NCBI GenBank assembly: GCA_018653365.1
Contig: JABIAG010000001.1
Location: forward strand, 68,772-132,771
Source: Candidatus Woesearchaeota archaeon
GTDB lineage: Archaea > Nanobdellota > Nanobdellia > Woesearchaeales > JABIAG01
Length of the DNA: 64,000 nt
Direction of reading: 5' to 3'
Every line of letters begins with the position of its first letter. The first letter of the stretch is position 1. Positions 6,001 through 46,133 of this stretch are shown here, piece by piece. Both the position numbers and the translations under genes were made by a program. Below the pieces are notes generated by a model. That model searched no databases. It saw nothing but the letters and a program-made list of their open reading frames with translations, and was not told the DNA's origin.

Positions 6001-9000
6001 TTAGAAGACCAAGAATTACATGGAATACAATGTGAATACGATTTCATAGGTTTAGGCGCACTATCTGAACAAAGTCAGTTCATAATTAATAAAGAAGAAC
6101 TATATGATAATGGTAAGTGGGAATTACCTGCAAACTTACCTCGAAGTGATGGAAGAGGAGGAAACAAATTAAATACTCTGACAAACGCACAATACATAGT
6201 AAACGCTACTTGTAGAAATTTGAGAGGAACTAAAGTAAACGCTTCCGCGAAGTTTGGAATAAATACTGAATATGATGCAAATTTCAAATTTATCTCACCA
6301 GGTGTAAACGAAGATGCAGTACATTGTGAAGACTGTCATGCAGCAAGAAAAGTTGTTGGCGGAGAAACAATAATAATCCTCGCAAACAAGGGAGACCTAT
6401 CCTGTAATCTTGATGGTACAACTCCTTTAACAGAGGGAGTACTAAACGGAGATGTCGACTTCCCACTAGGAGTAGAATTCTATTTCACACTACCTAATAC
6501 TGGAGCAGATGGAAGTAGTGAAAACACTTTAGAGGTAACTTGTATATCTAACGCAGACATAAGTGACAACCAACCAAAAAGACTGTATTATTATGAAGAT
6601 AATCAAGCACCACAAGAAGATCCAGTTATAATCTTACCTTCTAACCGATTCAATAAAACAACACAAACAGTAACTGTAGGAATTACTAACCTGGCAGCAT
6701 TAACAGAACATAACCTTCATGATGCATTGTTTATTATACACGCAAAAGACCTAAGTAATAATAACGAATATGAAAAAGAATTCCAAATTAATATCACAAC
6801 AACAGAGATAACATTCGAATTTAATGAACTAATAACTGACGATCCAGGAATGGACGCAGAAAAAGAGTACGAACTTTGGGCAGAAGCCTGGGACGATGTA
6901 AGTAATGGACCCGTAAGCTCAATAAGTGCACCACTAACAATGTACTTTGATAATTTAGATCCTGTATTAAGTTTAGAATACACTGGAGTAGAGGGAGTTA
7001 ATAGTTTAACTGCAAGGAATATTGCAATTAGATTAACTGAAGAAAGTAATTTGGATGTAACAGATGGAATCACCCCATTAATAACTTTGACAGGCGCTCA
7101 AGATGGAGATGGTTATGTATTTACTCCAACAGAATACAAAACTTACATTCTAAAAGCAGAACCAACAGACCTAACTGGAAATAAAGGGGAATGGTCAAAT
7201 ACAATCAGTTTAACATATAATGATGAAGCACCAGAATTTAGGGATGAATTACCCTCAGATAATGCGATTGTTGGCGGAACACAGGTAGACTTCAGCATAA
7301 GCGTAGAAGATGAAAATGGCTTAGATACAAGTACACTACAAGCATTCATAAATGGAACACCAATAACTCCTATACCAATAATTACAACAAGTAATGTAGG
7401 AACAAGAGGAATAATAACATTTACTCAATTAGGAATGGCAGCAGAACCCTACAACATAACTGTATATTTGGATGACATGTTAGGAAATCAGGGAGAATTT
7501 GAGTGGACAGTAAACACCAACAATGATGCACCAACACAACCCACCTGGACAGTACCACAATACACAAATAACAAATTACAACCTGTAACAATAACCTTTA
7601 ACGAATTAGTAGTAATTGATGCTGCTGACGCGGTAACTATTAATGGAGAAGTAATTACTGTACCTGCAACCCCTGCAACAACATTTACATTTACACCAAC
7701 TGTTGACTTAATGGGTGATGACGAAGAAAAAACAATTAATGTTGTAGTTAACGCACACCTAAGTGGCGGAACTGGCGTGGACTTCCCATTCACAAAAACG
7801 TTTACTGTAGATACTATCGAACCTGTAGTAAACACGTTTGAATCAATACCTCAAGAAACAACAGTAGACTTAAATGAAATAACCCTTCTTGGAACGTTCA
7901 CAGAAACCAATCTAGAAAAAATAGAAATAAACAAATCAACAAGAATATATGCGGCTAAAACTTATGCACTAACTTCATTCATAAACGAAAGTATAGAATT
8001 AGACCCAGAAGAAAATTCATTCAGTGTAATAGTTTATGACAAAGCAGGAAATGAAGGGACTGCAACAATCTCAAGATATTACGATAATACTGTTCCCGAA
8101 ATAAATGCTGCATCTTTACAAATAATTGGAGTAACTATAGAACAAGACGGAACCTGGATAGTGAGTGTTGAGGAAGGAGAAACAATCACATTAACTGGAA
8201 CATACACATCAACAGAAGAGGTAACAATAACAACGGATATAAATAATGGTGTGGTTACCGTTCCTCCTAATGCAGATACCTTCACAATAGTTGGAGAGTT
8301 AGATGGCACCGATGGAGCAGAAGAAACAAATACGATCACGATAACTATCGATGATGGAACACACATAACCACAACAACATTAACAATTATTAATGATCGA
8401 CAGGCACCAACAGCAACACTAGTACTGCCTGAACTTGGATTTACAAATGATGCAACCCCTGAAATAAAAATTTCTACAGATGAACTTGCAACCTTATGTA
8501 ACATAACCTATCAAGCAAGTGAAACCGAAATGACTTCTTCAGGCGCAGACTTTAGTTACACTTTCACAACAGCATTAGCAGAAACAGCCCATACTGTATT
8601 AATTGGATGTGAAGATGAACGAGGAAATTTCGAAACAACCCCTCTAGAGTTTACTGTAGATTTAACCTCTCCTGACTTTACAACATCTTTTGTAAACGCA
8701 GAATTACAAACTACAGACAATTTCCTATTATTTAGTACAGACACAACACAATTACATATAGAAACGTTTGATGTAATCAAATGTAAATACAAACTTAGTA
8801 CAGAAACACCTTATACGCCAATGAGTGTTAATTTTGGAAACAGCCATACTTCACAAGATTTAACCTTAAATAATGATGAATACATATACAACATAACTTG
8901 TGAAGATAGAGCAGGAAATGAAAAAGACAAAGAAGTAAACCTAACTGTAAATACTGCATTACAAATCCAGGCAACAGCTAACCTAAACGGAGAATCAATT

Positions 9001-12000
9001 AAGAATAATCAACCACAAGTATTTATAATTACTGACAGGCCAGCAACTTGTACGCCAACAGGAAATGGCGCATATCATACTCTGGATGATACGGGAATTG
9101 AAATAACTGAATTCACAACTGCTGATGCTACAACACATATTGCATACTTATCAAGCTTAGCAAGTACTCCCGCACCACTAAATGATGGAACCTACGCCTT
9201 ACCCGTAACCTGTCAAGCACAAACTACTGGAATTAATGATGGAAGCATAAACGTACAATTCACTGTAGATACAAATCTTGATGCACCAGTAATAACTAAT
9301 TTTGATGATTCCACTACAATCCCTATAGTTACAGCATACCCTGATATACAATTCACTGTAAATGAAGAAGTAAACGCAACAATATACGTTAACAATAATT
9401 TTAAACAAGTTTTAGAAAATATTCCTGCAGGAACCATTCATACATTCTCTAATGTACACTTAGCAAATAAAGGAGTGAACGTTATAACTATAAAAGGTGT
9501 TGATGCAGCAGGTAATGAAAATGCTGCCAGCGTATTAATAAATTTATCAACTGACAATCCAGTAATTGACGAAACCAAAGTCAGACACCCTGAACACAAT
9601 GCGCTTTATGGTGGAATAAATGAAACATATGTTTACTTTAATTCAGACCTTGCAATAACTAATGCAGAAGTAACATTGATCGGAGATCAAGGACTAATAT
9701 ACAATTCGGGAACAATAATTATTGATAATGAACAAAGAAAAATAATTTACAATGAAACAGGAAGTTTGATAAGTGATAATTATACGTTCCAAATAAACAT
9801 AACTGATTCTGCAGGAAGAAAAAGCGAGAATAACCTAATTAGATTTGAAATTGATACAGAAGCACCAGTAATAACTGTACTAAGTCCAAACGGGGATGAA
9901 GTAATCACATCAACAACCACAACAGTGACTGCAATATCAAATAAAGAATTAGAAAAAGCAACATTTACACTTAATGGACAAACACAAACACTAGCTCCAG
10001 TAATCCCTCCATTCACATTTACTACACAAAACTTGCCTGAAGGCAGACACGAATACGAAATAAATGGAACTCGATACTGTCCAACCACAAATTGTGGATT
10101 TAATACAGGAACATACAAAAATAGTTTCATCATAGACATAACCGGACCAACATATTCAAACATAGAATACTCTGGAGGAATCAATCATCTAGTACAAATC
10201 ATAAACGAAAACGTAGATGGATACACATACCAAGAATACGAATCAGTTCCACAATCAGAAATGCATCCTGATCTACGAACCCTTGGTTTAGAAAATCAAC
10301 TAATTGCAATATATGAAAATAATTCTAACTCTGAAGAGGTTGAAATAACAATACTAGAATTTGAAACCGCACAAGGAGTACAAGAATATTTAACACTAAT
10401 TCAAACATATAATTCAGACTTAACAAGTCAGAATTGGGCAATAAGAAGTAATGTAATAATATTATCTCTTAATACAGACATAATACAAAAAGGATATGTT
10501 CTTGGAGCACCCTTCTCCGCAGCAAGCGTAGTGGACCACTTAATAAGAGATGTGACCCCTTCAATAACGTTCTTCTTCGACGAACCAACAACAATTACTT
10601 ATGTATTACAAGATGACTCAAACGCGCCAAAAGCAACATCAATGGTTCAAAATGCAGCAGGAACTAGCTTTACAATAACTGCCACAGAAAACTTAATGGA
10701 AACTAATCACAAAATTATTTTGACTGCTTCAGATGTGTATGGAAATCCAAATACGCAAGAATTTTCTTTTAGTATTTTGGCAGAACCTTTTGCAATAGAA
10801 CTAAAAGAACCATTATTTGGATATACAAAAGAAGACGCAACCAAAGTAGTTATCGAAACATCCAGACAGGGAGATTGTAAATGGACAACCAACTTAGACT
10901 GGAACTTTGATCAAGCAATTGCATTTGATTCCGCGAGTTCAACACAACATAATATTACTGGGTTTAATAGATACAACCAAGATCTAAAAATATTATGTAA
11001 CGATACAGGTTATTCAGGAACAGAAATAACTGATATGTTTAGAATCACAAGAGATACCGCAGAACTAACAGCGGAATTATTTATGGATAATGTTGAATCA
11101 TTAACAGGTACATTACAAGCAGTAAGTACGGTAAGTGGCAAGACCATGATTTGTTACTACAATGAATCTGGAATTTGGAACATTTTTGATGGACTAAATG
11201 AAAGAATAGAAGATAGTTATCAAGCAATACAAAGACAAACTTTTACTGTTGGTGATTATTTAGTTGATGGCCGTGTAAATGAAATTTCTGTGTTATGTAA
11301 AGATAAAGCACAAAATGCCTGGACTGGATCCATTGATATAACCGTAAACACCAGTCGAGACTTCGGACTAGAATTAATCAAACCAGTAGTCGGATTTAAA
11401 ACAGCAGAATCAGAAGTTGAAATACACGCAAAAACAAATCGAGATGCTAGCTGTAAGTATAGATTAGACTCAGGAAATTTATTAGGATTAGCGACAGCAA
11501 ATGATAAAGACCACACAAGAACTAGGGGACAATTAGACAGCGGAACATATAATTTACAAGTTACCTGTGAAGAAATGGGATCGGGAACACCTGCCGCAGA
11601 AAATAGAACTTTCTACATAGATACAACTGAACCTGAGATGGCATTAGTCCAAATAAGAAATTTAATTGATGACGAATATTCATATTATGAAAATGAAATA
11701 TATTTTTATGTTTCAGCATATGATAATGAATCAGGAATTACCCGATTCAACATAACTCTTTATGAATCTGGAGAGGATGATCCACTAACAACATTAACTT
11801 TCTCCAATGTAGATTCAAAAGATGTTGCAGATGACTTGGCAGATTGCCTTGCAAGTGCAGATGAAGATGAAGATGAACGAGAAGAGTGTTATGACGAAAC
11901 AACACTAACTGGAAATGAAATAGATGATGTTGAAAATTGTTTAGAAGATGAAGACGAAGATTTCAGAGTAAGTAAGTCTGAAGCAAAAGCTTGTGTCGAA

Positions 12001-13464
12001 GAAAGCTTACCTGATCAAGAATACGACCTAACATATTACATAGAAGATGATCTAAGAGAAAGAGATCTTGAAAACGATACCGAATACGTATTAGAATCAA
12101 GAGCAATGAATGGAGTGGGAATTTGGAGTGATGCAATCGAATCTGACGAATTTACAGTAAACTGGGACATGACCCCAGCATCATGTAATGATGATAAACA
12201 AAATGGAAACGAAACTGATGAGGATTGTGGTGGAAACGAATGTCGATCATGTAGAGTAAGTGAAACCTGTACTGATGATGATGATTGCTTATCTGATAAT
12301 TGTGTTTTAGGTGTTTGTAAAACCCCTAGTTGTACTGATAATAAATTAAACGGAGACGAAACTTCTAAAGATTGTGGTGGAAGTTGTGTTGGATGTGACG
12401 TAGATGAACAATGTTTAAGAAATTCAGATTGTAACTCAAATAAATGTGATATTGCAAACGAATTATGTGAAGAAGATCCTTGTAATAATGGAATAAAAGA
12501 TCTGGGAGAGGCATATATTGATTGTGGAGGATCATGTATTCCAATAAGATGTGCAACAGGTAATCCTTGTACCCAAAATGGGGACTGTCTAAGTGGAAAT
12601 TGTAAAGACTTACAATGTGTAACCACATCAAGCGATACTGATAATGATGGAGTAACCGATCTAGATGATAATTGCATGTCTGTAGCAAATACTGATCAAA
12701 CAGACATAGATGGTGATAACAAAGGAGATGAATGTGATAATGACATTGATGGCGATAGAATGGACAATGACTGGGAAATAAGATATGGATTAAACCAAAG
12801 ATTCATTGGAGACGCAAATGGCGACATAGACCAAGATGGATTAACCAATGTACAAGAATACGATGAAGGAACAGACCCCACAAATATAGATAGTGATGGG
12901 GACGGAATGAGTGACGGAGAAGAAATAGCAAAAGGAAGAAATCCAAGAGTAGCAGACTCTTCAATATTAAAAACAATCTTAATCATACTTTTAGTTTTGG
13001 CAGCTCTGGGTGTAGTTGGGTTCATAGCTTACAAGAAATTCGCTAAGCCACCACTTTCCCCACCCTCTACACCACGAGCGCTAAAACCATTACCTAAAAA
13101 ATTACCTCCTTTAAAGAAAAAATTACCCCCAATGGGCTTGCGACCTTTAAGGCCAGCTTTAAAGAAGAAAATAAAACCTCTAACAAAAAAACCAATAGTT
13201 AGAAGAGGACTCCCACCAAAACTAAAAACCCTAAAAAAACCAATTCCAAACAAAAAACCTGTTAAGGAATACGTTAATTTAAATGAATTAGGTAAATCGG
13301 ATAAGTCTATAAAGAAACCGGCTAAAAAACAAGACGCATTATCTAAACTTAAAGAACTAGGACAAAAAACTCCAAGTGCTAAGACCAAACCAACAACTAA
13401 AAGTTCAACACCACAAAAAGATCCTTTTTCAAAACTAAAAAAGATGAAAAAAACAAAAAAATGA
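1..13464 (+). CDS. Giant surface/adhesin protein, 5'-partial (at least 4487 aa). Repetitive Ig/cadherin-like beta-domain repeats, then a Cys-rich 'DCGGxC' region (about 12180-12620), TSP3-like Ca-binding repeats (about 12637-12930), a single C-terminal TM helix (about 12964-13035) and a Lys/Pro-rich cytoplasmic tail
   Basis: The uninterrupted ORF runs from the window edge, so the real N-terminus is probably upstream. Recurring ~100-aa repeats carry conserved motifs such as 'AWDD..NGPVSS', 'CEDR.GN' and 'NITC.D..GN'. The C-terminus has motifs like DxDxDGxxDxxE/'DSDGDGMSDGEE', followed by a hydrophobic stretch 'ILIILLVLAALGVVGFIAY' and a KKLPPLKKKLPP-type basic tail. Confidence 0.8.
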   Translation: MNFYGKEPSPAVTGQFAYQPNTQLDVVLVEPVDGQKYNNLDDVFIRADTNIFGNPTGLTCFFSVSSPQFNPNQKNMDSSALISQTFSGYSSVFVHDGIPNYLIGEVGETYQVAVTCIFGSQAAFSPPSISILIDDTPPQITGLTVYDKRCDDVTKQVLPLYDPGTGAVYYAKETEICVESEITEALTEIESVELEYPSSTRDITANFKNTIPGNGILITATTLNLNLREGDEEEIILRAQDTIGNAPSTFTRKIILDQTPPVIDSIIINPTGSLGTPLMKDNKYIYKVADDEPLEISVTTDEPALIKLFEFSELDASSDYVTTDFLNTLLTIGEHTYKINATDRAGNLQTSQELEIVNDHIAPRVDAVANNKPSYFEIRGQNFGVLTPTLELYFRDATGIKYGNFTTYRMFRSGPNVDQAEKLTHEWLEVVPENLGNDQYKFTLDVASDLIPNEVYWDDFHYYIAYDVMDNLTNTGGENNSNHFNFGVNEEAPQLHSASLENQYWQNPKQTLILTYNDEPTKRDQHVKINRFEVIENSFTAAAMAKVDFENYDAYLEGEVIPNEGTGRRQFTITPNTEWTCSHCIFRLEEARIVLPTGEPANSAFQFGEILFYIDKNDSEIMEIELDADTNLLYNAEDLRLNAHMTEQTLSGIRTKDDTITLLVRFKDEKIIDGRETRNLTIKLDGTPIFNGEVESDRDEDTHSVYEKTQEITLVPGTNTITVQSTDLSGRQSTTFTRTLWLDEEEPTLSNLGFVYEDNIVDLSTTELVFKTNLVDFDLTGTYTTDDDATIYLDGTSYTTDGVQPSGAFTIPNIVLDQPSIGNEQENNFDIVIEDSVENKQITPLKVIVDKLAPELILVDTTNTELDLVGGNQIYYRYLSDDINLTVKSTTEGLAGCKMYFGGLPAADMTETITNEFFYETGTLVGNYDFYIVCEDNFGNQNQLDSSLWQYTDPVITGINPVLTQTLFIHPEDFENEFDLRITPVPNTNEIKCKYDFILDEGARPKLLDSNQNPIKLTYEEMQEDDEWEQIAFLPWGGKGKNTLREIIGAGYTTNYLSVNVTCKDRSGTEIDQKVDFEIDDDFNLQFKFDYPPTHEEVNWVADKKIRTGEMFSIIVNRPDAQCSVEGTPDIALLGNPTTINDPDYKLATRYEFEQTIDSGASGRPASVALPDDAQEFTVNCQILGQPIQTKTLEFIGDNTAPDVPQLNLVQTGYNKTTQTVRFTIDNLENVLENNMNDSVIKLQADNINGGPIYQDVEYNVSPDTLNNYVFEFVFEDLIKETLTGEVEEKYNFWVQAWDDLELGPVSSNILELTYDNKSPTIDSYVIENSVQNGNIYYVGSDPTITGTVSEVDSIITFDAFTTTGTTTGNDFIITKTLIDNADIIISLRSKDALENIGEETSEIILHKDLTGPTFVDATGSLSEGTGFEVTKFKELSQLLITFEDNSGFSAGQQPVLAKAERDSADVTGETTISYYGSLDENSNGFDERIIYEIELASGFTSPSATEASQYEFEVDVKDSFGTPTTFNFKFTIDPRVPEITVETEGRTSINEFKFNISDDSNNIETSTLTIELEGNEEGITNYDYADGCVISTPVTKHECTLTTPFTQSQTVTYEIYVEDDLANSNELTGQYEHDLTPISIDESTILIEGEDSSYDILADGKTNITFEIINNEPLEEITCSYSLDTDATYQQMIDAGTSEVVTIISDNLIKFLDIFNSVGSTEGAHTLYVSCKDESGNVNESIDIPFTVDTQIPAITNVELTTVGPHQGGRSGEDFLFETGNNVLTISGTYTSNDGIIVTTEAMGQTYTHTDVVSDGQFSLTTVVLETPSSGDAKEINELILNITDSAGNVNDTLKVNITLDKEKPNLEIVETSNALVGTVGNDLVYWTIANADVNLAVEANEYLETCAIHFSGLDETLTTKPADNKFTYSLANFGGISWDFEITCTDRYDNVETLYSTLKKYTESSFDEIELRVSPLIIDSPISDNFALEVLPKRAGSYLEDQELHGIQCEYDFIGLGALSEQSQFIINKEELYDNGKWELPANLPRSDGRGGNKLNTLTNAQYIVNATCRNLRGTKVNASAKFGINTEYDANFKFISPGVNEDAVHCEDCHAARKVVGGETIIILANKGDLSCNLDGTTPLTEGVLNGDVDFPLGVEFYFTLPNTGADGSSENTLEVTCISNADISDNQPKRLYYYEDNQAPQEDPVIILPSNRFNKTTQTVTVGITNLAALTEHNLHDALFIIHAKDLSNNNEYEKEFQINITTTEITFEFNELITDDPGMDAEKEYELWAEAWDDVSNGPVSSISAPLTMYFDNLDPVLSLEYTGVEGVNSLTARNIAIRLTEESNLDVTDGITPLITLTGAQDGDGYVFTPTEYKTYILKAEPTDLTGNKGEWSNTISLTYNDEAPEFRDELPSDNAIVGGTQVDFSISVEDENGLDTSTLQAFINGTPITPIPIITTSNVGTRGIITFTQLGMAAEPYNITVYLDDMLGNQGEFEWTVNTNNDAPTQPTWTVPQYTNNKLQPVTITFNELVVIDAADAVTINGEVITVPATPATTFTFTPTVDLMGDDEEKTINVVVNAHLSGGTGVDFPFTKTFTVDTIEPVVNTFESIPQETTVDLNEITLLGTFTETNLEKIEINKSTRIYAAKTYALTSFINESIELDPEENSFSVIVYDKAGNEGTATISRYYDNTVPEINAASLQIIGVTIEQDGTWIVSVEEGETITLTGTYTSTEEVTITTDINNGVVTVPPNADTFTIVGELDGTDGAEETNTITITIDDGTHITTTTLTIINDRQAPTATLVLPELGFTNDATPEIKISTDELATLCNITYQASETEMTSSGADFSYTFTTALAETAHTVLIGCEDERGNFETTPLEFTVDLTSPDFTTSFVNAELQTTDNFLLFSTDTTQLHIETFDVIKCKYKLSTETPYTPMSVNFGNSHTSQDLTLNNDEYIYNITCEDRAGNEKDKEVNLTVNTALQIQATANLNGESIKNNQPQVFIITDRPATCTPTGNGAYHTLDDTGIEITEFTTADATTHIAYLSSLASTPAPLNDGTYALPVTCQAQTTGINDGSINVQFTVDTNLDAPVITNFDDSTTIPIVTAYPDIQFTVNEEVNATIYVNNNFKQVLENIPAGTIHTFSNVHLANKGVNVITIKGVDAAGNENAASVLINLSTDNPVIDETKVRHPEHNALYGGINETYVYFNSDLAITNAEVTLIGDQGLIYNSGTIIIDNEQRKIIYNETGSLISDNYTFQINITDSAGRKSENNLIRFEIDTEAPVITVLSPNGDEVITSTTTTVTAISNKELEKATFTLNGQTQTLAPVIPPFTFTTQNLPEGRHEYEINGTRYCPTTNCGFNTGTYKNSFIIDITGPTYSNIEYSGGINHLVQIINENVDGYTYQEYESVPQSEMHPDLRTLGLENQLIAIYENNSNSEEVEITILEFETAQGVQEYLTLIQTYNSDLTSQNWAIRSNVIILSLNTDIIQKGYVLGAPFSAASVVDHLIRDVTPSITFFFDEPTTITYVLQDDSNAPKATSMVQNAAGTSFTITATENLMETNHKIILTASDVYGNPNTQEFSFSILAEPFAIELKEPLFGYTKEDATKVVIETSRQGDCKWTTNLDWNFDQAIAFDSASSTQHNITGFNRYNQDLKILCNDTGYSGTEITDMFRITRDTAELTAELFMDNVESLTGTLQAVSTVSGKTMICYYNESGIWNIFDGLNERIEDSYQAIQRQTFTVGDYLVDGRVNEISVLCKDKAQNAWTGSIDITVNTSRDFGLELIKPVVGFKTAESEVEIHAKTNRDASCKYRLDSGNLLGLATANDKDHTRTRGQLDSGTYNLQVTCEEMGSGTPAAENRTFYIDTTEPEMALVQIRNLIDDEYSYYENEIYFYVSAYDNESGITRFNITLYESGEDDPLTTLTFSNVDSKDVADDLADCLASADEDEDEREECYDETTLTGNEIDDVENCLEDEDEDFRVSKSEAKACVEESLPDQEYDLTYYIEDDLRERDLENDTEYVLESRAMNGVGIWSDAIESDEFTVNWDMTPASCNDDKQNGNETDEDCGGNECRSCRVSETCTDDDDCLSDNCVLGVCKTPSCTDNKLNGDETSKDCGGSCVGCDVDEQCLRNSDCNSNKCDIANELCEEDPCNNGIKDLGEAYIDCGGSCIPIRCATGNPCTQNGDCLSGNCKDLQCVTTSSDTDNDGVTDLDDNCMSVANTDQTDIDGDNKGDECDNDIDGDRMDNDWEIRYGLNQRFIGDANGDIDQDGLTNVQEYDEGTDPTNIDSDGDGMSDGEEIAKGRNPRVADSSILKTILIILLVLAALGVVGFIAYKKFAKPPLSPPSTPRALKPLPKKLPPLKKKLPPMGLRPLRPALKKKIKPLTKKPIVRRGLPPKLKTLKKPIPNKKPVKEYVNLNELGKSDKSIKKPAKKQDALSKLKELGQKTPSAKTKPTTKSSTPQKDPFSKLKKMKKTKK

Positions 13465-13970
13465 AAACGAAGGCACAAACACAAATGGTATTTGTATTCA
13501 TACTAATTGCAATAGTAATCGGATTGATAGTTCTATTCGCATATAAAGGAATAAGTAGTACAGTAAATACTTCAGAACAGGTCGTGGGAGCAAAACTAGT
13601 AACATCAATAAAGGCAGATGTTAGTTCACTAAGACGATCAAGAGGAAGTTCACAAATATTCGAGTACCAAGTTCCCGGCAAAATAACAAATATTTGCTTT
13701 ATACGAAGTTGTTCTGGAGACTGTAGTACACTTTATTCTGGATCACTGCCCATCGCGCTAAGTTCATACTCTGCAGACGATCCCCAAAAAAACATGTTCT
13801 TATTGGGAAAAGGGGATTTTGTTCTAGAAGCAATATCTTTAGGAAGTTTAGACGTGGATTATGACCGAGATGGAATCACAGATGATTTTCACTGTTTTAA
13901 AACTCCTGGAAGATTAAAAATAAGAATTCTAGGAACTGGCGCTAATGCAACAATTCAAAATGCTCAATAA
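13461..13970 (+). CDS. Class III signal peptide (type IV pilin-like) protein, 169 aa
   Basis: N-terminus 'MKTKA/QTQMVFVFILIAIVIGLIVLF': a short basic leader followed by a hydrophobic helix. The ATG overlaps the giant gene's stop codon (ATGA). Confidence 0.55.
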   Translation: MKTKAQTQMVFVFILIAIVIGLIVLFAYKGISSTVNTSEQVVGAKLVTSIKADVSSLRRSRGSSQIFEYQVPGKITNICFIRSCSGDCSTLYSGSLPIALSSYSADDPQKNMFLLGKGDFVLEAISLGSLDVDYDRDGITDDFHCFKTPGRLKIRILGTGANATIQNAQ

Positions 13971-14964
13971 AAAAGGAATGACCTCTACAGTTTTCAACTG
14001 GGTATTTATAGCAATAGCTGGAGCACTAATAATGCTATTCTTCTTTAAAATTATAACAACACAAACAGAAATAAGTGAAAACGAAATAACCGCGAGAATA
14101 GTAAAAGACATGGAAGATATATTAGTTGGAAAAACAATATCTACGGATTCGGCATCTGAAGTAAAAATATCTGAAAAAGACTTTGAATTCAAATGTGAAG
14201 AACCCTGTAATGAATTAACAGGGTGTAATTCTTGGCTTGGAATAAAGAAAGCAGAAAATAGAATAGAACTCAATACACAACCTGTTTTTACAATAGAAAA
14301 CTTACGATCTAGCAAAATATATGCATTTGCACAAGGATGGGATGTACCATTTCATACAGCAAACTTTCTTTACATTGCAGCACCAGGAGAAAAAATAGTT
14401 TTCCCAACAAATTGCAATACAAAACCCCTCTGTAATAAAATTTTTACACTAATACCTCAAAAATTAAAAGATGCAAGAATTGTAATAAAGGGCGAGGATG
14501 ATAAGTTATCACGATTTAAAAAATACATAGAATTCGAGGTTCCATCAGGGAATCCAACTCGAAAAAAAGAGGTAGTAATTGATGAAGCAAATCACCAAAT
14601 ACATTTTTATGAAAACGGACGACTTCAAGCATCAGAATACTATTTTCTAGAAGAAGCAATAATTGGGGCAGCATTCACACAAGATCATAAAACATACTCT
14701 TGTAATATGAAAAAAGCATTCTACAAGTTAAGAAATTTAGCAATAGTTTTAGAAGGCAAAAGAAGTTATCTAGAAATTAATGCCCCCGCAGATCCAGCAT
14801 TTTGCAGATCGCATTTCCTAACTACCCAAAACCAAATTGCGAGCTTTAACACATTATACAAAGACTTAGATACTGCAAAATTAGTAGAACTTAACACAAG
14901 AAAACAAGAATTAGAACACGAAAATAACGAGTTACGCAGAGGATCTTGCGCATCAGTATACTAA
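13960..14964 (+). CDS. Class III signal peptide (pilin-like) protein, about 334 aa. The track ORF starts at 13945; the likely start is at 'MLNKKG'
   Basis: 'MLNKKG/MTSTVFNWVFIAIAGALIMLFFF' is a canonical archaeal prepilin-like N-terminus. The extracellular domain contains several Cys. Confidence 0.6.
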   Translation: MLNKKGMTSTVFNWVFIAIAGALIMLFFFKIITTQTEISENEITARIVKDMEDILVGKTISTDSASEVKISEKDFEFKCEEPCNELTGCNSWLGIKKAENRIELNTQPVFTIENLRSSKIYAFAQGWDVPFHTANFLYIAAPGEKIVFPTNCNTKPLCNKIFTLIPQKLKDARIVIKGEDDKLSRFKKYIEFEVPSGNPTRKKEVVIDEANHQIHFYENGRLQASEYYFLEEAIIGAAFTQDHKTYSCNMKKAFYKLRNLAIVLEGKRSYLEINAPADPAFCRSHFLTTQNQIASFNTLYKDLDTAKLVELNTRKQELEHENNELRRGSCASVY

Positions 14965-14966
14965 AA

Positions 14967-15530
14967 ATGAAAAATAAACAAAGTCGAAGATTTTCAAAAG
15001 GACAACTGCACCTAATGGAATCAACCGTGGTAATGTTCGTATTTTTCTTACTCATAATGGTTGGGCTAACAGTATATTCTAATTATCAAAATGCAAAAGT
15101 AGAACGAATAAGAATTGAAACAAATGAACAAAAAGCAACACAAATAGCGAAAAGAATGTTATTCGCACCCGAATTAGAGTGTTCCAACAATAATGCACGA
15201 ACACTAGATTGTATAGAAATCCAAAAATTACAACCCTTTGTGAATCGCGTAAAACAAAGTCCTGCATATTATAGACAAGAATTTGGAAATTCAAGAGTGA
15301 GCATAAAATGGGTTTACTCCCCAGGATTTACAGGAACGTTTTCAGCACCTGAATTTTTTAGAGCAAACCCTACCGATATATTAGTCACTTCACCACAAAA
15401 AGAACTGTTTAATTTTAAAGCAGGAGGCGAAAGTCATAAAACGTTTACTTTCCCGATCCTATTATGGGATAAAAGACAGGTACCTGAATGGAGCTATTTC
15501 GGATGGTTGGAAGTAGAGGTAAACATATGA
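14967..15530 (+). CDS. Class III signal peptide (pilin-like) protein, about 187 aa. The likely start is the internal Met 'MKNKQSRRFSKGQ'
   Basis: 'FSKG/QLHLMESTVVMFVFFLLIMVGLTVY' has a KGQ cleavage-like site and a Glu at +6, which are the classic type IV pilin hallmarks. Confidence 0.6.
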   Translation: MKNKQSRRFSKGQLHLMESTVVMFVFFLLIMVGLTVYSNYQNAKVERIRIETNEQKATQIAKRMLFAPELECSNNNARTLDCIEIQKLQPFVNRVKQSPAYYRQEFGNSRVSIKWVYSPGFTGTFSAPEFFRANPTDILVTSPQKELFNFKAGGESHKTFTFPILLWDKRQVPEWSYFGWLEVEVNI

Positions 15531-16078
15531 ACAAACGTGCTCAAATGGAAATATTTGGACTCGCCATAATATTTGTAATATTTATACTTGGATTATTGAT
15601 TTTCTTAAAATTTAGTGGAGATGAACCGATAACTACTGCAGAAGATTTTGTAATGAAACAACTACCCACGCGAATGCTTCAAACCATGATGAAAACAACA
15701 ACAGGATGCAGAGAACAAGAAGTAGAAGTTCTAGTAGTTGATATTGCTTCGCATGTAAACCCTACCCCTCCTGATTATTGTACTGATATAAATGTTAATT
15801 CACAAATAAATTGTAATGGACACACAAGTTATGAAGAATTATTTGGAATAGGCAATGTAGTACCTTCAGTGTTTGCAAATAGTTTAGATATAGAAAAGAA
15901 AGATTACGAATTTATAATAAAAATGAAAGGCGGATGCGAAATTTACGCAATTAACTCAACCAATAGTTGTGCAAGAGCAAATAAGATAAGTGCAGAAACT
16001 TTTTATTTAACTTCCAATAGAGGGAAAGTAGAAATGATTATGAAAGTATGTGAAAATGTGGGGTATGCAAATGAGTGA
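15527..16078 (+). CDS. Class III signal peptide (pilin-like) protein, about 183 aa. The likely start is at 'MNKRAQME'
   Basis: 'MNKRA/QMEIFGLAIIFVIFILGLLIFL'. There are 6 Cys in the C-terminal domain. ATGA overlap with the upstream gene. Confidence 0.55.
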   Translation: MNKRAQMEIFGLAIIFVIFILGLLIFLKFSGDEPITTAEDFVMKQLPTRMLQTMMKTTTGCREQEVEVLVVDIASHVNPTPPDYCTDINVNSQINCNGHTSYEELFGIGNVVPSVFANSLDIEKKDYEFIIKMKGGCEIYAINSTNSCARANKISAETFYLTSNRGKVEMIMKVCENVGYANE

Positions 16079-16175
16079 TATAGTGGGACTGCCAATGTCA
16101 AAGTTTATTATACTAATAGCAAGTATAATTTTTATTACTTTAATACTTGTAGTTGTAGTGGGAATACTTAAATGA
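16071..16175 (+). CDS. Small single-TM protein (34 aa), not in the ORF track, translationally coupled between pilin-like genes
   Basis: ATG at 16071 overlaps the upstream stop, and the TGA at 16173-16175 overlaps the next ATG at 16172. The product is 'MSDIVGLPMSKFIILIASIIFITLILVVVVGILK'. Confidence 0.35.
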   Translation: MSDIVGLPMSKFIILIASIIFITLILVVVVGILK

Positions 16176-16966
16176 AATTATGCAATAAAAAAGGAAGTAG
16201 TTTAGTACAAACAACCCTGGCTAAAGTACTCATAACCATATTAGTTTTAATAGTGTTATTAGCAATAGTCTATGTCTGGCAAGAAGAAATAACTGGCGGG
16301 GCAGATTCTAAAAAATGTAAATTTGAAGTAGTCAGAGTATCACAAACCTCAAAGATTCCAGGAATCAAAGACAAATACTTAACAGCCTATTGTCCATCCA
16401 AGGAATTGGGAATTCTAAACTTAGGAAAAGATGGGGAACGAGAAATGAGGGGCTTGGCCATAGACTTAGTAAGTGAAATGGTAGATTGCTGGGACAAATT
16501 TGGAGAGGGCAAATTAAATCCGATAAAGGGGGAGACAAATACACAAAAAACACACTGTTTTGTATGTGCATCATTTAGCATGCCAGAGGAGTTACCCTCG
16601 GCAAAGTGGGGCGAGTTTGGAAAAGAGTTAGATATAGTATTAAAAAATAATGACAATGCAAGAAAGTTTTTAGCAGACACACTATCAAAGAAAAGTATAG
16701 ATCATTATGACCATCATATGCAAAAAGTTAGTGTGGATAATAATCTGATCCTCGCAGATAAAATTAAATATACTTATTTCTCCAACTTTCACCTACAAGC
16801 AGATAAAAGTTACCATCTAATAAACATCTTTGTTGTAAATAAAAAACAATTCCTTACAAACGCAGTACAAGAAGGAAAGCCAATAAACGAATATGAAACA
16901 GTAGCACGTTTGGCGTTTGTAGAAGAATCAAATTTTGAAAACGTATGTACACAATTAGAAAACTAA
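16172..16966 (+). CDS. Class III signal peptide (pilin-like) protein, 264 aa
   Basis: 'MKLCNKKG/SSLVQTTLAKVLITILVLIVLLAIVYV'. Cys residues in the extracellular part. Confidence 0.6.
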   Translation: MKLCNKKGSSLVQTTLAKVLITILVLIVLLAIVYVWQEEITGGADSKKCKFEVVRVSQTSKIPGIKDKYLTAYCPSKELGILNLGKDGEREMRGLAIDLVSEMVDCWDKFGEGKLNPIKGETNTQKTHCFVCASFSMPEELPSAKWGEFGKELDIVLKNNDNARKFLADTLSKKSIDHYDHHMQKVSVDNNLILADKIKYTYFSNFHLQADKSYHLINIFVVNKKQFLTNAVQEGKPINEYETVARLAFVEESNFENVCTQLEN

Positions 16967-16967
16967 A

Positions 16968-17852
16968 ATGGAATTCCTACAAAACAAAGCAGCACAAGCA
17001 ATACTAGCACTAATAATCATGGCATTATTAATTGCCATGGTTGTAGCAGTAAAAAATGCATCAGAAGAAGCAGCAGCTGCCAAATCCTGTGAAGCAAGCA
17101 TAAAAATACACACAGATCTTATAAAATTAGGAGTGCCAGCAAGACATAATGAAATTGATTGTCCTGCAAAAATGATAGAAATAAACGAAAAAAACGCACA
17201 ATTTGAGTTAGCAGAATCAATGAGAAAATGCTGGAACCAATATGGTAAAGGCAATTTAAACATGTTTAATGGAGAGGGCATATTTTGTTCTATATGCAAT
17301 GTAATTACGGTTGACGAACCAGTAGTTGTAGAAAACTTCGTTGAGTATTTAGCAAGCGCGTACGTACCTGGAAAAAGAACAAAATATTTAGCAGACATGG
17401 CCGATGTACAAACCGACAAGGCCTATGCTCTAGAGGGATATGAGGAGGCAATACTTCGAGATTCAGCACTAGAAGATTTTACAATAACAAAACAACAACC
17501 TTATGGAGTGATATTTGTTCAAGTAAAAGGATATGATAAATTAGGAAAGTATGTACGAACAGCTACAAATGTGTTGGGAGGGGCAGCAGTGGTTGGAACA
17601 GGCCTTTTAATAATGAAAGGGTCTACAACATTAAACATAATTCCTGGTTTTGGGACGTTAGCAAGTTGGATAGGCTATACTGTTGGTGGAGTACTGGTTG
17701 CAGGGGGAACAGTAACCACAATTGTTGCAGAATATTTTAATGTCTTAAATTTTGAACGTTATTCAGAAGTCGTATTGAGGCCATACACCGAAAAAACTTT
17801 AAATGAAACAATTGGATGTGACTACATACCTGTAAGAGTAATAGAAAAATGA
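16968..17852 (+). CDS. Class III signal peptide (pilin-like) protein, 294 aa, with a Gly-rich C-terminal hydrophobic segment
   Basis: 'MEFLQNKA/AQAILALIIMALLIAMVVAV'. The C-terminus 'GGAAVVGTGLLIMKG...GGVLVAGGTVTTIVAEY' suggests a second membrane-associated segment. Confidence 0.5.
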   Translation: MEFLQNKAAQAILALIIMALLIAMVVAVKNASEEAAAAKSCEASIKIHTDLIKLGVPARHNEIDCPAKMIEINEKNAQFELAESMRKCWNQYGKGNLNMFNGEGIFCSICNVITVDEPVVVENFVEYLASAYVPGKRTKYLADMADVQTDKAYALEGYEEAILRDSALEDFTITKQQPYGVIFVQVKGYDKLGKYVRTATNVLGGAAVVGTGLLIMKGSTTLNIIPGFGTLASWIGYTVGGVLVAGGTVTTIVAEYFNVLNFERYSEVVLRPYTEKTLNETIGCDYIPVRVIEK

Positions 17853-18001
17853 AACTAATAAACAAAAAAGGAAATTTTGGGTTCTTATCCAAATCCGCAG
17901 TATTATTCATTATAATTATGGCATTAGTGGCGATAATAGTTTACTTCTTAGTAAAATTTTTACCTAGAGGAATAGCCTTCGCGAGGATGTTCGGCAGATG
18001 A
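17849..18001 (+). CDS. Mini pilin-like protein (50 aa), not in the ORF track
   Basis: 'MKLINKKG/NFGFLSKSAVLFIIIMALVAIIVYFLVKFLPRGIAFARMFGR'. The start ATGA-overlaps the upstream stop and the stop overlaps the next ATG at 17998. Same NKKG leader as its paralogs. Confidence 0.45.
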   Translation: MKLINKKGNFGFLSKSAVLFIIIMALVAIIVYFLVKFLPRGIAFARMFGR

Positions 18002-18372
18002 AATCAGGAATATTAACAGCAGCAGTAATTATTTTAGTATTGGTACTGGCAATGGTAATGTTTGTTATTAATGGTAAAGTTGGGGGCGGACTTACAAGAA
18101 TACTCGGAACATCAGAAGATTACCAATACTGTGAAGAAACAAAAACAACAGCAAATGAGTTCAATTCAAATTTACAGGTGAAAATAAATGATGGCGATGA
18201 GGCCAGAAACTATTATGAATTTCATGCAAATGAGGGTTGTTTTAAAGATCCGTCAAATATAGAGTTAGATAAACAATTAAAATGTGATTTTTTTTGTGAA
18301 AATGAAAATTTTAGAGTGAGTGAAAGTATACAAAAAAGAATAACTCGCTTTTGTAAAAGTTGTAGAGGATAG
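17998..18372 (+). CDS. Class III signal peptide (pilin-like) protein, 124 aa, Cys-rich C-terminus
   Basis: 'MKSG/ILTAAVIILVLVLAMVMFVI'. The C-terminus carries 'C..C', 'CDFFCEN' and 'CKSC' pairs. Confidence 0.5.
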   Translation: MKSGILTAAVIILVLVLAMVMFVINGKVGGGLTRILGTSEDYQYCEETKTTANEFNSNLQVKINDGDEARNYYEFHANEGCFKDPSNIELDKQLKCDFFCENENFRVSESIQKRITRFCKSCRG

Positions 18373-18571
18373 AAACATTTATATAACATAAATCTTTGAT
18401 TTATGAATATAAATGTCCGAAAAATGGGATTAAGTTATTGCACATTTATATAATAAACTTAGTTATTTAGGAGCATAGATATTCAAAAAATAAAAATGGT
18501 TTTTCGATACATTTATATAGGAGAAAGGGGATAGAAAACATAATACCTAAAAAAAACTCGAGGTGTCAAGC
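18373..18571 (+). promoter_or_regulatory. Intergenic region with three copies of a 'CATTTATATA' TATA-box-like element upstream of the twin small pilin genes
   Basis: 'aaaCATTTATATAacat' (about 18375), 'caCATTTATATAataa' (about 18441), 'taCATTTATATAggag' (about 18509). 'AGGTG' lies before the ATG at 18572. Confidence 0.4.
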
Positions 18572-18838
18572 ATGGAAAAAGGTCAAGGTTTATCAATAAC
18601 AACAATTGTTGTAGCGGCAATAGCATTATTAATTCTAGTTGTATTGGTTGCAGTATTCACAGGACAATTCGGAGGATTTACACTCGGAGTTCAAGATTGT
18701 AACGCTAAAAGTGGAGCATGTTACGATTCCTGTCCAACAGGAACTGCAGTATTACAAGGAAGAACATCATGTAGCAAACTACCTTCTGTAGATGGTGAAG
18801 GAAAACAAGTTTGTTGTATAAGCCCAGAAGGGATATAA
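18572..18838 (+). CDS. Small pilin-like protein (about 88 aa), candidate major pilin. The track ORF begins at a GTG at 18563
   Basis: 'MEKGQG/LSITTIVVAAIALLILVVLVAVFTGQFGGF' followed by a short 4-Cys domain. It sits after an intergenic region with three TATA-like boxes and has a paralog immediately downstream. Confidence 0.6.
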   Translation: MEKGQGLSITTIVVAAIALLILVVLVAVFTGQFGGFTLGVQDCNAKSGACYDSCPTGTAVLQGRTSCSKLPSVDGEGKQVCCISPEGI

Positions 18839-18845
18839 ATATAAA

Positions 18846-19127
18846 ATGAATAAAAACGGAGTAGCAATTGGAGTAACAACAATAGTAATTGTTGTAATTG
18901 CACTCTTAGTTCTAGTTGTGGTAATGGCCGCATTCTCAGGACAATTCGGCGGATTCGGACAAGCTGTAAGAGACTGTCCAAGCAAAGGGGGAGAATGTAA
19001 ATCTGGTTGTCTTCCAGAAGAAACACGATACTTTGGGGTGGGGATTTGTAAAGATGCAGGAAATGATCCCGGTGATGATGGTGCAGCCAAAGATAAATGC
19101 TGTATAGATATAGCAAAAGTTGATTAA
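18846..19127 (+). CDS. Small pilin-like protein (93 aa), paralog of the 18572 gene
   Basis: 'MNKNG/VAIGVTTIVIVVIALLVLVVVMAAFSGQFGGFG' shares the '...[FS]GQFGGF' core and a 4-Cys C-terminal domain with the preceding gene. Confidence 0.6.
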   Translation: MNKNGVAIGVTTIVIVVIALLVLVVVMAAFSGQFGGFGQAVRDCPSKGGECKSGCLPEETRYFGVGICKDAGNDPGDDGAAKDKCCIDIAKVD

Positions 19128-19202
19128 AAATTATTTTTTCTTTTTAACTTTATTCTCTAAGCAGATAGAAATATTTAAATAGGGTTAAGAGAATAAAAAG
19201 GT

Positions 19203-20144
19203 ATGAAAAAGAAAGGGGCAATAGGTGCAGCATTAGTCTTAGTTGGTGTGATGATTGTGGTTATAATTGTGCTGGTGGTTGTTGGACCTTCTTTAATAAA
19301 GCAATTTAGAGGATTAGACGGTTATTTAAGAGGTATAGAAACCACAAACAAATTCTGTGATCAAATCGCTAAAGAAGTAACATTGAAAGATGTATCATTA
19401 CGAGATGGTGATCAAAAATATACTGGACAAACAGTACCAAAACCCGGAGCGTGTGAAGTATTAGCACGGGAAAAAGGAGAATTTCGAAAAGGTAGAGACG
19501 GAAAAGGACAACAAGAATTCAGATGGACCTTCTCAAAAGAATCTAATCCTGAATATGGAAATGAGTTCTGTTGCTTATTCATAGTTAATGTAGGTGAAAA
19601 TGGAGAAGACCTACCTCCTACAAGAACAGGTACTTCTGGAAGCAATACTGGTTCTGATGATGCAACTGGCGCTTCAGATGGGGTAATAATTACAACCAAT
19701 GCAGCTGGAGATACAATAAAAACATATCCTGATGGAACTGTTGAAACTATTTATAAAACTCCCATAGATTTGATAGATCTAAACGATTTACCTCAAGAAG
19801 CAGAGGTTCCTGCACAATGTAAAAATTATAATAAAGACGTAAATGAAATCAATATAGATTGTGGCGGACCTTGTGCTGTTTGTGAATGTGTTTTTGAGAC
19901 TAATCGTTTTGTCTATTATGAACAACCCGATTCGATTTTTTATTTTGCATTTTTTGATTTGAGTTGGAAATTTACCCAATCAGGGGATGGAACCCCCTCT
20001 GACGTTGGAAATTTAGCTCTTGGAACGTATTCAAATGAACTCAAGGAACTAGGACGAGAATTAAGAACAAAAAATGAAACTGAAGGGCGTCAATATCTTG
20101 AAAACACTTTTTGCATATTTAAAACGATTACTAAAACATCTTAA
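19203..20144 (+). CDS. Class III signal peptide (pilin-like) protein, 313 aa, with a 'DCGGPC..C' Cys module
   Basis: 'MKKKG/AIGAALVLVGVMIVVIIVLVVV'. The extracellular domain contains 'CKNYNKDVNEINIDCGGPCAVCEC' (nt about 19808-19888). Confidence 0.6.
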   Translation: MKKKGAIGAALVLVGVMIVVIIVLVVVGPSLIKQFRGLDGYLRGIETTNKFCDQIAKEVTLKDVSLRDGDQKYTGQTVPKPGACEVLAREKGEFRKGRDGKGQQEFRWTFSKESNPEYGNEFCCLFIVNVGENGEDLPPTRTGTSGSNTGSDDATGASDGVIITTNAAGDTIKTYPDGTVETIYKTPIDLIDLNDLPQEAEVPAQCKNYNKDVNEINIDCGGPCAVCECVFETNRFVYYEQPDSIFYFAFFDLSWKFTQSGDGTPSDVGNLALGTYSNELKELGRELRTKNETEGRQYLENTFCIFKTITKTS

Positions 20145-20146
20145 AA

Positions 20147-20710
20147 ATGAAACAGAATAAACTAATAAACCAAAAAGGAGTACTGGGAGAGGGAGGAGTA
20201 AGATTAATGGTAATAATCGTACTTGTTCTTTTAATGGCAGCAGTAGTTGGGTGGTGGGCAATAACCTCAACAAGCGAATCAGGAACAAGACTAACAGAAT
20301 TAGGAGAGTGTGAAAGAGGTTTTGAAGGAATGTATGGAATGTGCTCACAAGTGCAATGCGAAGCAACAGGGGGGGATTCAGTAGTTTCAAGTATGTTAAA
20401 AACATGTCCATCAACAAGAGTAAGATTAGCATTTCAATTACAAGGAATACAAAAACAAGAAGTTAACAAATACAAATATTGTTGTATAGTAGATCATTGT
20501 TCAGATATAACCGATCACGGAGTACCCAGAGTTCAGGGCTGTTTTTACGGTGAAGAAGATCAAGACTATTCGCTTTGTGCAACAGACAAAGGACATAAAA
20601 CAGGTTATACTGAAGATCTCTGTTTAGGTTATGCAAAAGATTGCTTGCCTGAAGACGGATGTTGTTGTGTAATTCCTGAATCAAAAAACGCATTAAGAAA
20701 AAATAAATAA
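20147..20710 (+). CDS. Class III signal peptide (pilin-like) protein, 187 aa, very Cys-rich (about 17 Cys)
   Basis: 'MKQNKLINQKG/VLGEGGVRLMVIIVLVLLMAAVVGWWAI', with 'CCIVDHC' and 'DGCCCVIPE' motifs. Confidence 0.55.
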   Translation: MKQNKLINQKGVLGEGGVRLMVIIVLVLLMAAVVGWWAITSTSESGTRLTELGECERGFEGMYGMCSQVQCEATGGDSVVSSMLKTCPSTRVRLAFQLQGIQKQEVNKYKYCCIVDHCSDITDHGVPRVQGCFYGEEDQDYSLCATDKGHKTGYTEDLCLGYAKDCLPEDGCCCVIPESKNALRKNK

Positions 20711-20715
20711 TAAAA

Positions 20716-25408: not shown

Positions 25409-25416
25409 ACATTAAA

Positions 25417-44086: not shown

Positions 44087-44087
44087 T

Positions 44088-46115: not shown

Positions 46116-46133
46116 TTTGTAATTCCTCCGTTA

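Follow-up and report, generated by a model that had tools for sequence, protein, structure and literature searches.

A widespread DCGG cysteine module in a giant Woesearchaeota surface protein, interpreted as a probable rigid stalk spacer

Here, we analyzed a 64,000-nucleotide (nt) stretch of DNA from Candidatus Woesearchaeota archaeon (GenBank assembly GCA_018653365.1, contig JABIAG010000001.1, positions 68,772 to 132,771, forward strand), referred to hereafter as the window, and focused on a Cys-rich module with an Asp-Cys-Gly-Gly (DCGG) signature. The module occurs in a giant surface protein and in two proteins of a downstream gene row with pilin-like N-termini. The giant open reading frame (ORF) encodes, in order, Ig-like repeats, an acidic stretch, three Cys modules, thrombospondin type-3 (TSP3) repeats, a transmembrane helix, and a Lys-rich tail. 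The features in question are as follows, with residue numbers given for the encoded proteins.

1 to 13464, + strand: giant surface protein ORF, truncated at the window start, at least 4487 residues
12184 to 12318, + strand: Cys module copy 1 of the giant ORF, residues 4062–4106 from the first to the eighth Cys, full eight-Cys form
12331 to 12468, + strand: Cys module copy 2 of the giant ORF, residues 4111–4156, full form
12481 to 12618, + strand: Cys module copy 3 of the giant ORF, residues 4161–4206, full form
12631 to 12924, + strand: Asp-rich TSP3-like repeats directly after the modules (Pfam TSP3_bac, E 1.4e-5; also TSP_3)
12964 to 13032, + strand: predicted transmembrane anchor helix (ILKTILIILLVLAALGVVGFIAY)
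13033 to 13461, + strand: Lys/Pro-rich C-terminal tail, presumed cytoplasmic
13461 to 27444, + strand: 16 tightly packed or overlapping ORFs, each with a basic N-terminus followed by a hydrophobic helix
19203 to 20144, + strand: pilin-like ORF 19203, 313 residues, MKKKG N-terminus and hydrophobic helix; no Pfam or NCBIfam family
19818 to 19889, + strand: short four-Cys form (N-half only) in ORF 19203, residues 206–229, delimited by the profile described below
20716 to 23268, + strand: pilin-like ORF 20716, 850 residues with 48 Cys, MKKRG N-terminus and hydrophobic helix
21817 to 22014, + strand: full-form module in ORF 20716, residues 368–433, with its core at residues 368–408 (21817 to 21939)
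22036 to 22167, + strand: two weak four-Cys units resembling the C-half, CTNIADCKFGLKCKDEKC and CEAPEHCGEGLICEMRKC, in ORF 20716

The anchor helix, the tail, and the Cys spacing of the two weak units were read from the sequence.

To avoid circularity, a hidden Markov model (HMM) of the module was built from 400 foreign copies with zero window sequence and was run on all 839 six-frame ORFs of at least 30 residues in the window. Copies 1, 2, and 3 of the giant ORF were recovered at residues 4061–4107 (E 4.9e-11, profile positions 1–47), 4110–4157 (E 5.9e-9, positions 1–47), and 4161–4208 (E 2.5e-11, positions 2–48), and the copy of ORF 20716 at residues 368–410 (E 5.1e-13, positions 2–43). The ORF 19203 copy was matched at E 4.2e-4 over profile positions 1–25 only. 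No further module was found among the 839 ORFs, the next best of which scored at the noise level of E 0.14. At the DNA level, the pattern GAYTGYGGNGG, which encodes D-C-G-G, occurs five times in the window, at nt 12223, 12370, 12520, 19857, and 21856; all five sites lie on the + strand and in frame within the giant ORF, ORF 19203, and ORF 20716. The chance expectation was 0.13 occurrences, with a maximum of 1 in 100 dinucleotide-preserving shuffles. A six-frame search of the window for [DNEK]CGG returned the same five D-C-G-G sites with the expected flanks, plus one unrelated NCGG in a frame full of stops.

The translation, the in-frame DCGG sites, and the foreign-only HMM together confirmed the first-pass annotation of this DNA, which had quoted the motif at these places in the three ORFs. 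The alignment of the copies also holds up statistically, with the four full copies at E 5e-13 to 6e-9 and the fifth at 4.2e-4. The description of the copies in the two pilin-like ORFs needs correction: both match the HMM, but the ORF 19203 copy is an N-half only and the ORF 20716 copy is interrupted before its presumed eighth Cys (nt 22014), which comes after a 24-residue insertion. The CTNIADCKFGLKCKDEKC and CEAPEHCGEGLICEMRKC units gave E-values of 0.42 and 6.3, respectively, and are not significant alone. The copies of the giant ORF are 35–46% identical to one another and are repeats in the protein only; Tandem Repeats Finder detected no DNA repeat in nt 12000–13100. The linkers between them are four residues each, KTPS between copies 1 and 2 and EEDP between copies 2 and 3.

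The module comprises ~46 residues and eight Cys arranged in two four-Cys halves, an N-half with the pattern C-x-D-G-x2-N-G-x-E-T-D-x-DCGG-x1-3-C-x2-C and a C-half with the pattern C-x5-DC-x-S-x2-C-x4-C. Conservation was calculated from an alignment of 1896 full copies among the search matches described below, in which the Cys occupy profile columns 2, 16, 21, 24, 30, 36, 41, and 46. E11 (100%), D15 (99%), G17 (99%), G18 (95%), and D35 (94%) are near-invariant, and D4 (85%), D13 (75%), G9 (73%), S38 (73%), G27 (72%), N8 (71%), and T12 (70%) are also conserved. At the other non-Cys positions, the commonest residue accounts for only about 14–63%. Conservation limited to Cys, Gly, and acidic or amide positions is the pattern that a scaffold would leave, and not that of a conserved ligand site. 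All eight Cys and the five near-invariant residues are present in the three giant-ORF copies and, counting its presumed eighth Cys, in the ORF 20716 copy, and the ORF 19203 copy retains just the first four Cys with E11, D15, G17, and G18.

The two halves are separable units because arrays of the N-half alone exist; it forms a ~25-residue repeat with 32 copies in P0148, a Chitinophagales protein of the type IX secretion system (T9SS), and occurs likewise in P0008 and P0009. Junctions between consecutive full units are exactly four residues long in 1230 of 1513 cases, and in 46% of those Pro stands at the third linker position. Copies short of Cys are rare, and their losses come in pairs: C1 and C3 are jointly absent from 10 copies in 7 proteins, C5 and C7 in 3 proteins, and C2 and C4 in 1 copy. 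Because the Cys are lost in pairs, disulfides probably connect Cys 1 with 3 and 2 with 4 in the N-half, and Cys 5 with 7 and 6 with 8 in the C-half.

The distribution of the module was analyzed exhaustively with HMMER across 1.84 billion cluster representatives (50% identity). The search returned 15,422 representatives at E≤1e-3, of which 6,829 reached E≤1e-10 and 1,889 reached E≤1e-30; single proteins carry tandem arrays of up to 39 matched stretches. The carriers are mostly Myxococcota, plus DPANN archaea, Bacteroidota, bacteria of the Candidate Phyla Radiation (CPR), and one green alga, and the named ones include Myxococcota, Bradymonadia, Polyangiaceae, Sorangium, Byssovorax, and Chitinophagales. 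A Candidatus Woesearchaeota protein (P0120) has 24 tandem copies, and the green-alga protein P0119 (eukprot, Chromochloris zofingiensis Cz19g02010), which is predicted to be secreted and has a signal peptide, has 21. The module was also observed in P0012, a protein labelled eukaryotic (Rotaria sp.). These eukaryote-labelled copies (P0119 and P0012) may represent contamination, horizontal transfer, or true eukaryotic members.

Species genomes of GTDB were scanned with an alignment restricted to ETD[VI]DCGG copies, and at least 513 stretches were confirmed (513 of the 600 matches listed). Among the best 80 of these loci, Myxococcota and other bacteria account for about 65, archaeal labels for 14 (Woesearchaeota, Nanoarchaeota, Altiarchaeales, 'archaeon', and 'Methanosarcinales' bins), and Paceibacterota for one. 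The module is accompanied by signal peptides, transmembrane anchors, DUF11, T9SS-tail, FG-GAP, TIG, and fibrinogen-like domains, and its predicted setting is exclusively extracellular. One CPR locus (L012, 2317–3876, Candidatus Paceibacterota) encodes a bacterial type IV pilin-like protein with an FTLVELVVV helix, one DCGG module, and a LamG-like C-terminus, and is an independent instance of the module within a pilin-like protein.

Next, the module was compared with known families using Pfam-A 2025, NCBIfam June 2026, and PDB sequences. Pfam-A gave no match to the module segments of the window even at E≤10, and no family at E≤0.01 on P0111 (28 copies) or P0190 (11 copies). On 61 triple-module segments at E≤1, Pfam gave just scattered weak matches and no family for the module; these were Dickkopf C-subdomain 1 in 2 of the 61 (best E 1e-3), one conotoxin, and one Dumpy DPY. 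No NCBIfam model matched the module in the window segments or, at E≤1, in the multi-copy homologues, PDB sequence searches with two profiles returned nothing significant, and full-text literature searches for the motif strings and their context returned nothing relevant. The LDL-A, Notch LNR, and TSP3 models of Pfam did not match the module itself, TSP3 being confined to the stretch after the modules. The models TIGR02232/DUF4215 and TIGR04201 of myxobacterial Cys-rich repeats, whose TIGRFAM versions are part of NCBIfam, were likewise unreported on proteins with 11–32 copies, with cut-offs of E≤1 for NCBIfam and E≤0.01 for Pfam, and on the 61 segments (Pfam at E≤1). In line with the first-pass annotation, which had not recognised the module as a named domain, it has no named family in the Pfam-A, NCBIfam, and PDB sequence libraries. 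A common, well-annotated domain of mundane distribution would have spoken against that annotation; the module is indeed common and widespread, but it is not annotated. It belongs to an apparently unnamed and very large family of extracellular Cys-rich mini-domains.

The structure of the three window copies was predicted with AlphaFold2 (AF2) from an alignment of 61 triple-module rows. The model had a mean predicted local distance difference test score (pLDDT) of 94.1, with copy 1 at about 95, and a predicted template modeling score (pTM) of 0.69. In each unit, a few short strands accompany a single helical turn, and a hairpin forms the end. Foldseek found no significant match in the PDB (best E 0.53); local superpositions on knottin-type toxins covered 22–30 residues with a root-mean-square deviation (rmsd) of 0.4–0.8 Å at E≥0.5. 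An EGF-like or anaphylatoxin-like fold, either of which had been raised as a possibility, was not supported. EGF-family Pfam models did not match the module at E≤10 in the window or at E≤1 in the 61 segments, and no EGF was present among the Foldseek PDB matches; for anaphylatoxin-like domains, there was neither a Pfam match nor a PDB match, and the AF2 model is almost without helix.

The earlier label 'disulfide-knotted' would be tentative at best: the knottin matches are local and below significance, and the paired Cys losses suggest that each half forms a ladder with 1-3/2-4 pairing. The likeness to knottin (inhibitor-cystine-knot) toxins is that the C-half overlays the cores of spider and cone-snail toxins and ends in a disulfide-braced β-hairpin (disulfide-directed β-hairpin). 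In contrast to those toxins, however, the C-half has four Cys with a suggested 5-7/6-8 pairing and not a three-disulfide knot, and the module occurs as a repeat within giant proteins and not as an independent peptide. Among viral models (BFVD), there were local matches to baculovirus conotoxin-like proteins, and the best match was A0A481Z975, an uncharacterised pithovirus 'transmembrane protein' (E 2.9e-5). This was the sole significant fold-level match, and pithovirus proteins resemble the present one in having tandem Cys-rich units joined to a transmembrane segment. The match showed 25% identity over 144 columns. For these pithovirus models, the template modeling scores were low (0.09–0.23) and the rmsd was 8–18 Å, so that only the repeat character is certain to be shared.

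The surroundings of the module were then compared among related archaeal loci. In a Woesearchaeota genome (L003), a giant ORF likewise ends with three modules, a transmembrane helix, and a basic tail, and is followed downstream by homologues of window ORFs 13461 (E 3e-14) and 13945 (E 2e-28). The order of modules, transmembrane helix, and charged tail recurs in other archaeal-labelled loci and in P0264; the helix is kept at the same position in L003, L006, L010, L017, L018, and P0264, and charged tails form the C-termini of L003, L006, L010, L017, L018, L045, L068, L085, and P0264. Through the ORF 13945 family, 21 related metagenome loci were retrieved. Fourteen of these include enough DNA upstream to assess the giant ORF, and in 12 of them it bears modules just before the anchor, usually three, although L094 has one and L091 has eleven. 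Across such anchor-proximal archaeal proteins, the copy numbers are 1, 2, 3, 4, 11, and 24. The idea that the three copies correspond by position from one archaeal protein to another was tested and dropped, as no consistent pattern emerged. As a further observation, the tail of the giant protein exceeds 100 residues, and comparable long charged tails, often with ...LKKLKK-like ends, are present in related archaeal surface proteins. Anchoring to something cytoplasmic is one possibility for the Lys/Pro-rich tail.

Downstream of the giant ORFs, the module was not found in the related loci: in 13 of them with 2–10 kb of downstream DNA (about 5–10 kb in eight), no downstream ORF bears a module, whether judged with the HMM (E≤1e-2) or with a motif search. 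The window copies are 33–46% identical to one another, compared with 50–55% to copies from unrelated organisms. Because they resemble foreign copies more than each other, there was no recent exchange within the genome, and the identity values led us to reject a recent transfer of the domain between adhesin and pilin-like ORFs. The shared module had been taken as support for a functional linkage of the adhesin with the pilin-like proteins. This support falls away, since the unit is generic (15,422 representatives), was not recently exchanged, and is absent downstream in the related loci. The linkage itself is plausible on another ground, because the gene order, with homologous pilin-like ORFs after a giant ORF, is conserved in L003 and in the 21 metagenome loci. 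We regard the single copies in the two pilin-like proteins as lineage-specific insertions of a general-purpose scaffold into exposed parts.

From these results, we favor, with moderate confidence, the interpretation that the module is a disulfide-braced, probably Ca2+-stabilised rigid spacer that forms the membrane-proximal stalk of the giant protein. Each half would be pinned by two disulfides, in the pairing given above, and D4, N8, E11, D13, and D15 of the N-half probably hold a Ca2+ ion. The units, joined head to tail through a fixed four-residue and often Pro-containing linker, would produce a stiff rod. Calcium binding is also expected of the TSP3 family, and the three units plus the TSP3 repeats would constitute a stalk that holds more than 4000 residues of Ig-like repeats off the membrane anchor. 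The data demonstrate the family itself, its distribution, its place within the proteins, its changing copy number, and a confident fold prediction, and from them we infer the disulfide pairing, Ca2+ binding, rigidity, and spacer role; the spacer role is proposed because of the extracellular setting, the uniform arrays with fixed short linkers, the variable copy number, the position next to the anchor, and the conservation of structural residues.

Known modules of this general kind are the calcium-binding EGF (cbEGF), LDL-A, and Notch LNR domains, which are also ~40-residue extracellular modules stabilised by disulfides and a Ca2+ site of Asp, Asn, and Glu (a probable site in the present case) and which form rod-like spacers in tandem. 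The DCGG module differs from them in having eight Cys as 4+4 with other spacing, and in the lack of any Pfam or PDB fold match. The TraA repeats (TIGR04201) and the Myxococcus cysteine-rich repeat (TIGR02232/DUF4215, IPR011936) are similar as short Cys-rich tandem surface repeats abundant in Myxococcota; however, they are separate sequence families without the DCGG signature or the two-half, eight-Cys layout. In TraA, the Cys-rich repeats lie between a distal PA14 recognition domain and the surface anchor and have been proposed to be a rigid stalk (PMC3325183). By analogy, this TraA region would be the closest functional analogue of the module. More tentatively, and with somewhat less than even confidence, the module may represent an undescribed, major family of extracellular mini-domains with its own fold, a prokaryotic counterpart of EGF and LDL-A present in bacteria, archaea, and at least one alga, which sets the length of the membrane-proximal stalk in giant surface proteins of episymbiotic DPANN archaea and so the cell's reach toward the host.

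Several points weigh against the rigid-spacer interpretation. One copy lacks C3 and C4, which contradicts the proposed disulfide pairing. When a single module was modeled by AF2 from a 22-copy alignment, the pLDDT was about 57 for the N-half and about 88 for the C-half, so that the deeper alignment may account for part of the confidence of the triple model, and the pTM of 0.69 would be only indirect evidence of rigidity. In L086 and L101, the upstream ORF has no module. Furthermore, many Woesearchaeota are thought to be anaerobic, which makes extracellular disulfide formation less obvious, and spacer modules such as EGF and LDL-A can bind ligands too, so that a spacer role is compatible with binding.

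The alternative that survives best is the earlier suggestion of an interaction or binding unit, by which the module would bind a host-cell glycan or protein ligand or mediate contacts between module-bearing proteins. This would suit its place in adhesin-like surface proteins and in the exposed parts of pilin-like proteins, the local resemblance of its C-half to knottin toxins, and the ligand binding of small Cys-rich or Ca2+-containing modules such as EGF, LDL-A, and knottins. However, only Cys, Gly, and acidic positions are conserved while the rest is variable, the copy number varies between 1 and 39 in tandem arrays that are uniform and have linkers of fixed length, and the unit is found across very different organisms and protein types. 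In addition, the archaeal modules adjoin the membrane, the end farthest from any target. A binding role was retained as an unlikely rival, as the conservation pattern and variable copy number fit a structural spacer better.

Far less probable is a physical coupling, in which module-to-module contacts would join the giant adhesin to a pilus-like filament as one machine. The absence of the module from the downstream pilin-like ORFs in 13 of 13 related loci, the lack of homologues of ORF 20716 beyond its own cluster, and the finding that the window copies are no closer mutually than to foreign copies all speak against it, even though the three ORFs lie within one co-oriented, tightly packed gene row and the succession of giant ORF and pilin-like ORFs is conserved. 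It is against this alternative that the comparative data weigh most strongly.

We also give very little credence to the idea that the eight Cys bind a metal (Zn or an iron-sulfur cluster) in place of forming disulfides, which would make the module a metal-stabilised or redox-active unit. The high Cys density and the C-x2-C pair would suit such a site, and the host is probably an anaerobic archaeon, in which disulfide formation outside the cell is uncertain. Nevertheless, neither a second C-x2-C knuckle nor a His ligand is conserved in the 1896-copy alignment, and the Cys are lost in pairs, as disulfides would predict. AF2, which models no metals, gives a compact fold at a pLDDT of 94, and the family is most abundant in secreted Myxococcota proteins and also occurs in a secreted protein of a green alga. 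Finally, a chance or low-complexity similarity of Cys-rich sequence is hardly credible and is refuted for the four full copies: although the units are short and compositionally biased and the ORF 19203 copy is weak (E 4.2e-4), there are five in-frame DCGG sites against 0.13 expected, four copies with the E-values given above, and thousands of homologues.

Extracellular Cys-rich tandem stalk repeats are a familiar kind of structure, and the DCGG family, a candidate for a new domain family, is one for which there is neither a Pfam-A or NCBIfam model nor a solved relative. With a name and a structure for it, thousands of surface proteins now called 'hypothetical' in Myxococcota, Bacteroidota, and DPANN archaea could be annotated. 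In DPANN archaea, the module marks a conserved design of giant surface proteins, in which Ig-like repeats precede a probable DCGG stalk that varies in length, a transmembrane anchor, and a Lys-rich tail, and a row of pilin-like genes follows downstream. Under the spacer reading, the effect of stalk length on host attachment becomes testable. That the adhesin and the pilin-like proteins have the module in common is no evidence of a joint function, which corrects the earlier reading.

As for the gene row itself, all 16 ORFs show, as judged by eye and by hydropathy, the pattern of a putative class III signal peptide, which is defined by a short basic N-terminus, a Gly/Ala cleavage site, and a hydrophobic helix. 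None of the 16 is matched by a Pfam family. The row fits archaeal type IV pilin-like signal peptides, and 'pilin-like' here denotes a putative assignment by pattern only. No pilin model of Pfam or NCBIfam matches the pilin-like ORFs of the row, and no assembly ATPase, platform protein, or prepilin peptidase was present among the window ORFs scanned with Pfam; these may lie beyond the window. ORF 20716, labelled by NCBI as a protein of Candidatus Woesearchaeota archaeon, has no protein-database homologue beyond its own 90% cluster, three proteins matching it via the Cys module alone, and no relative in the GTDB species genomes. Several ORFs of the row are very Cys-rich, with 7.5% Cys in ORF 20147 and 5.6% in ORF 20716. 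The latter also contains an internal duplication of a ~100-residue Cys-rich segment, at about residues 560–660 and 760–845 (BLASTP E 3e-10, 32% identity), which is unrelated to the DCGG module. In locus L091, two adjacent ORFs of 564 residues with 42 Cys each (15779–17470 and 17704–19395) lie downstream of the pilin-like genes. They are reminiscent of the Cys-rich ORF 20716, yet the DCGG module is missing from both of them. Two adjacent ORFs of the window row, 18563–18838 and 18846–19127 (91 and 93 residues, six Cys each), resemble tandem paralogues that share a CC motif at the C-terminus and, following the hydrophobic helix, the sequence ...GQFGGF..., and they may be major pilin candidates.

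A second surface-protein cluster lies on the − strand at 37676–44113, with neighbours at 34519–37673 and 44088–47382. None of its proteins has the DCGG module. The cluster encodes a 2145-residue protein with YadA-head repeats, PKD and Big_13 proteins, a collagen-repeat protein, and a TSP3-repeat protein. The window is archaeal, encoding RadA, RPA, and the archaea-specific DUF2240 domain. A full-length RadA (Rad51 plus HHH_5) is located at 32840–33904 and a short RadB-like paralogue (220 residues, Rad51 E 1.4e-25) at 48872–49534, and aIF2/IF-2 and ribosomal protein S2 are also encoded. The presence of RadA, the RadB-like protein, RPA, aIF2/IF-2, and ribosomal protein S2 therefore confirmed that this DNA belongs to an archaeal chromosome.

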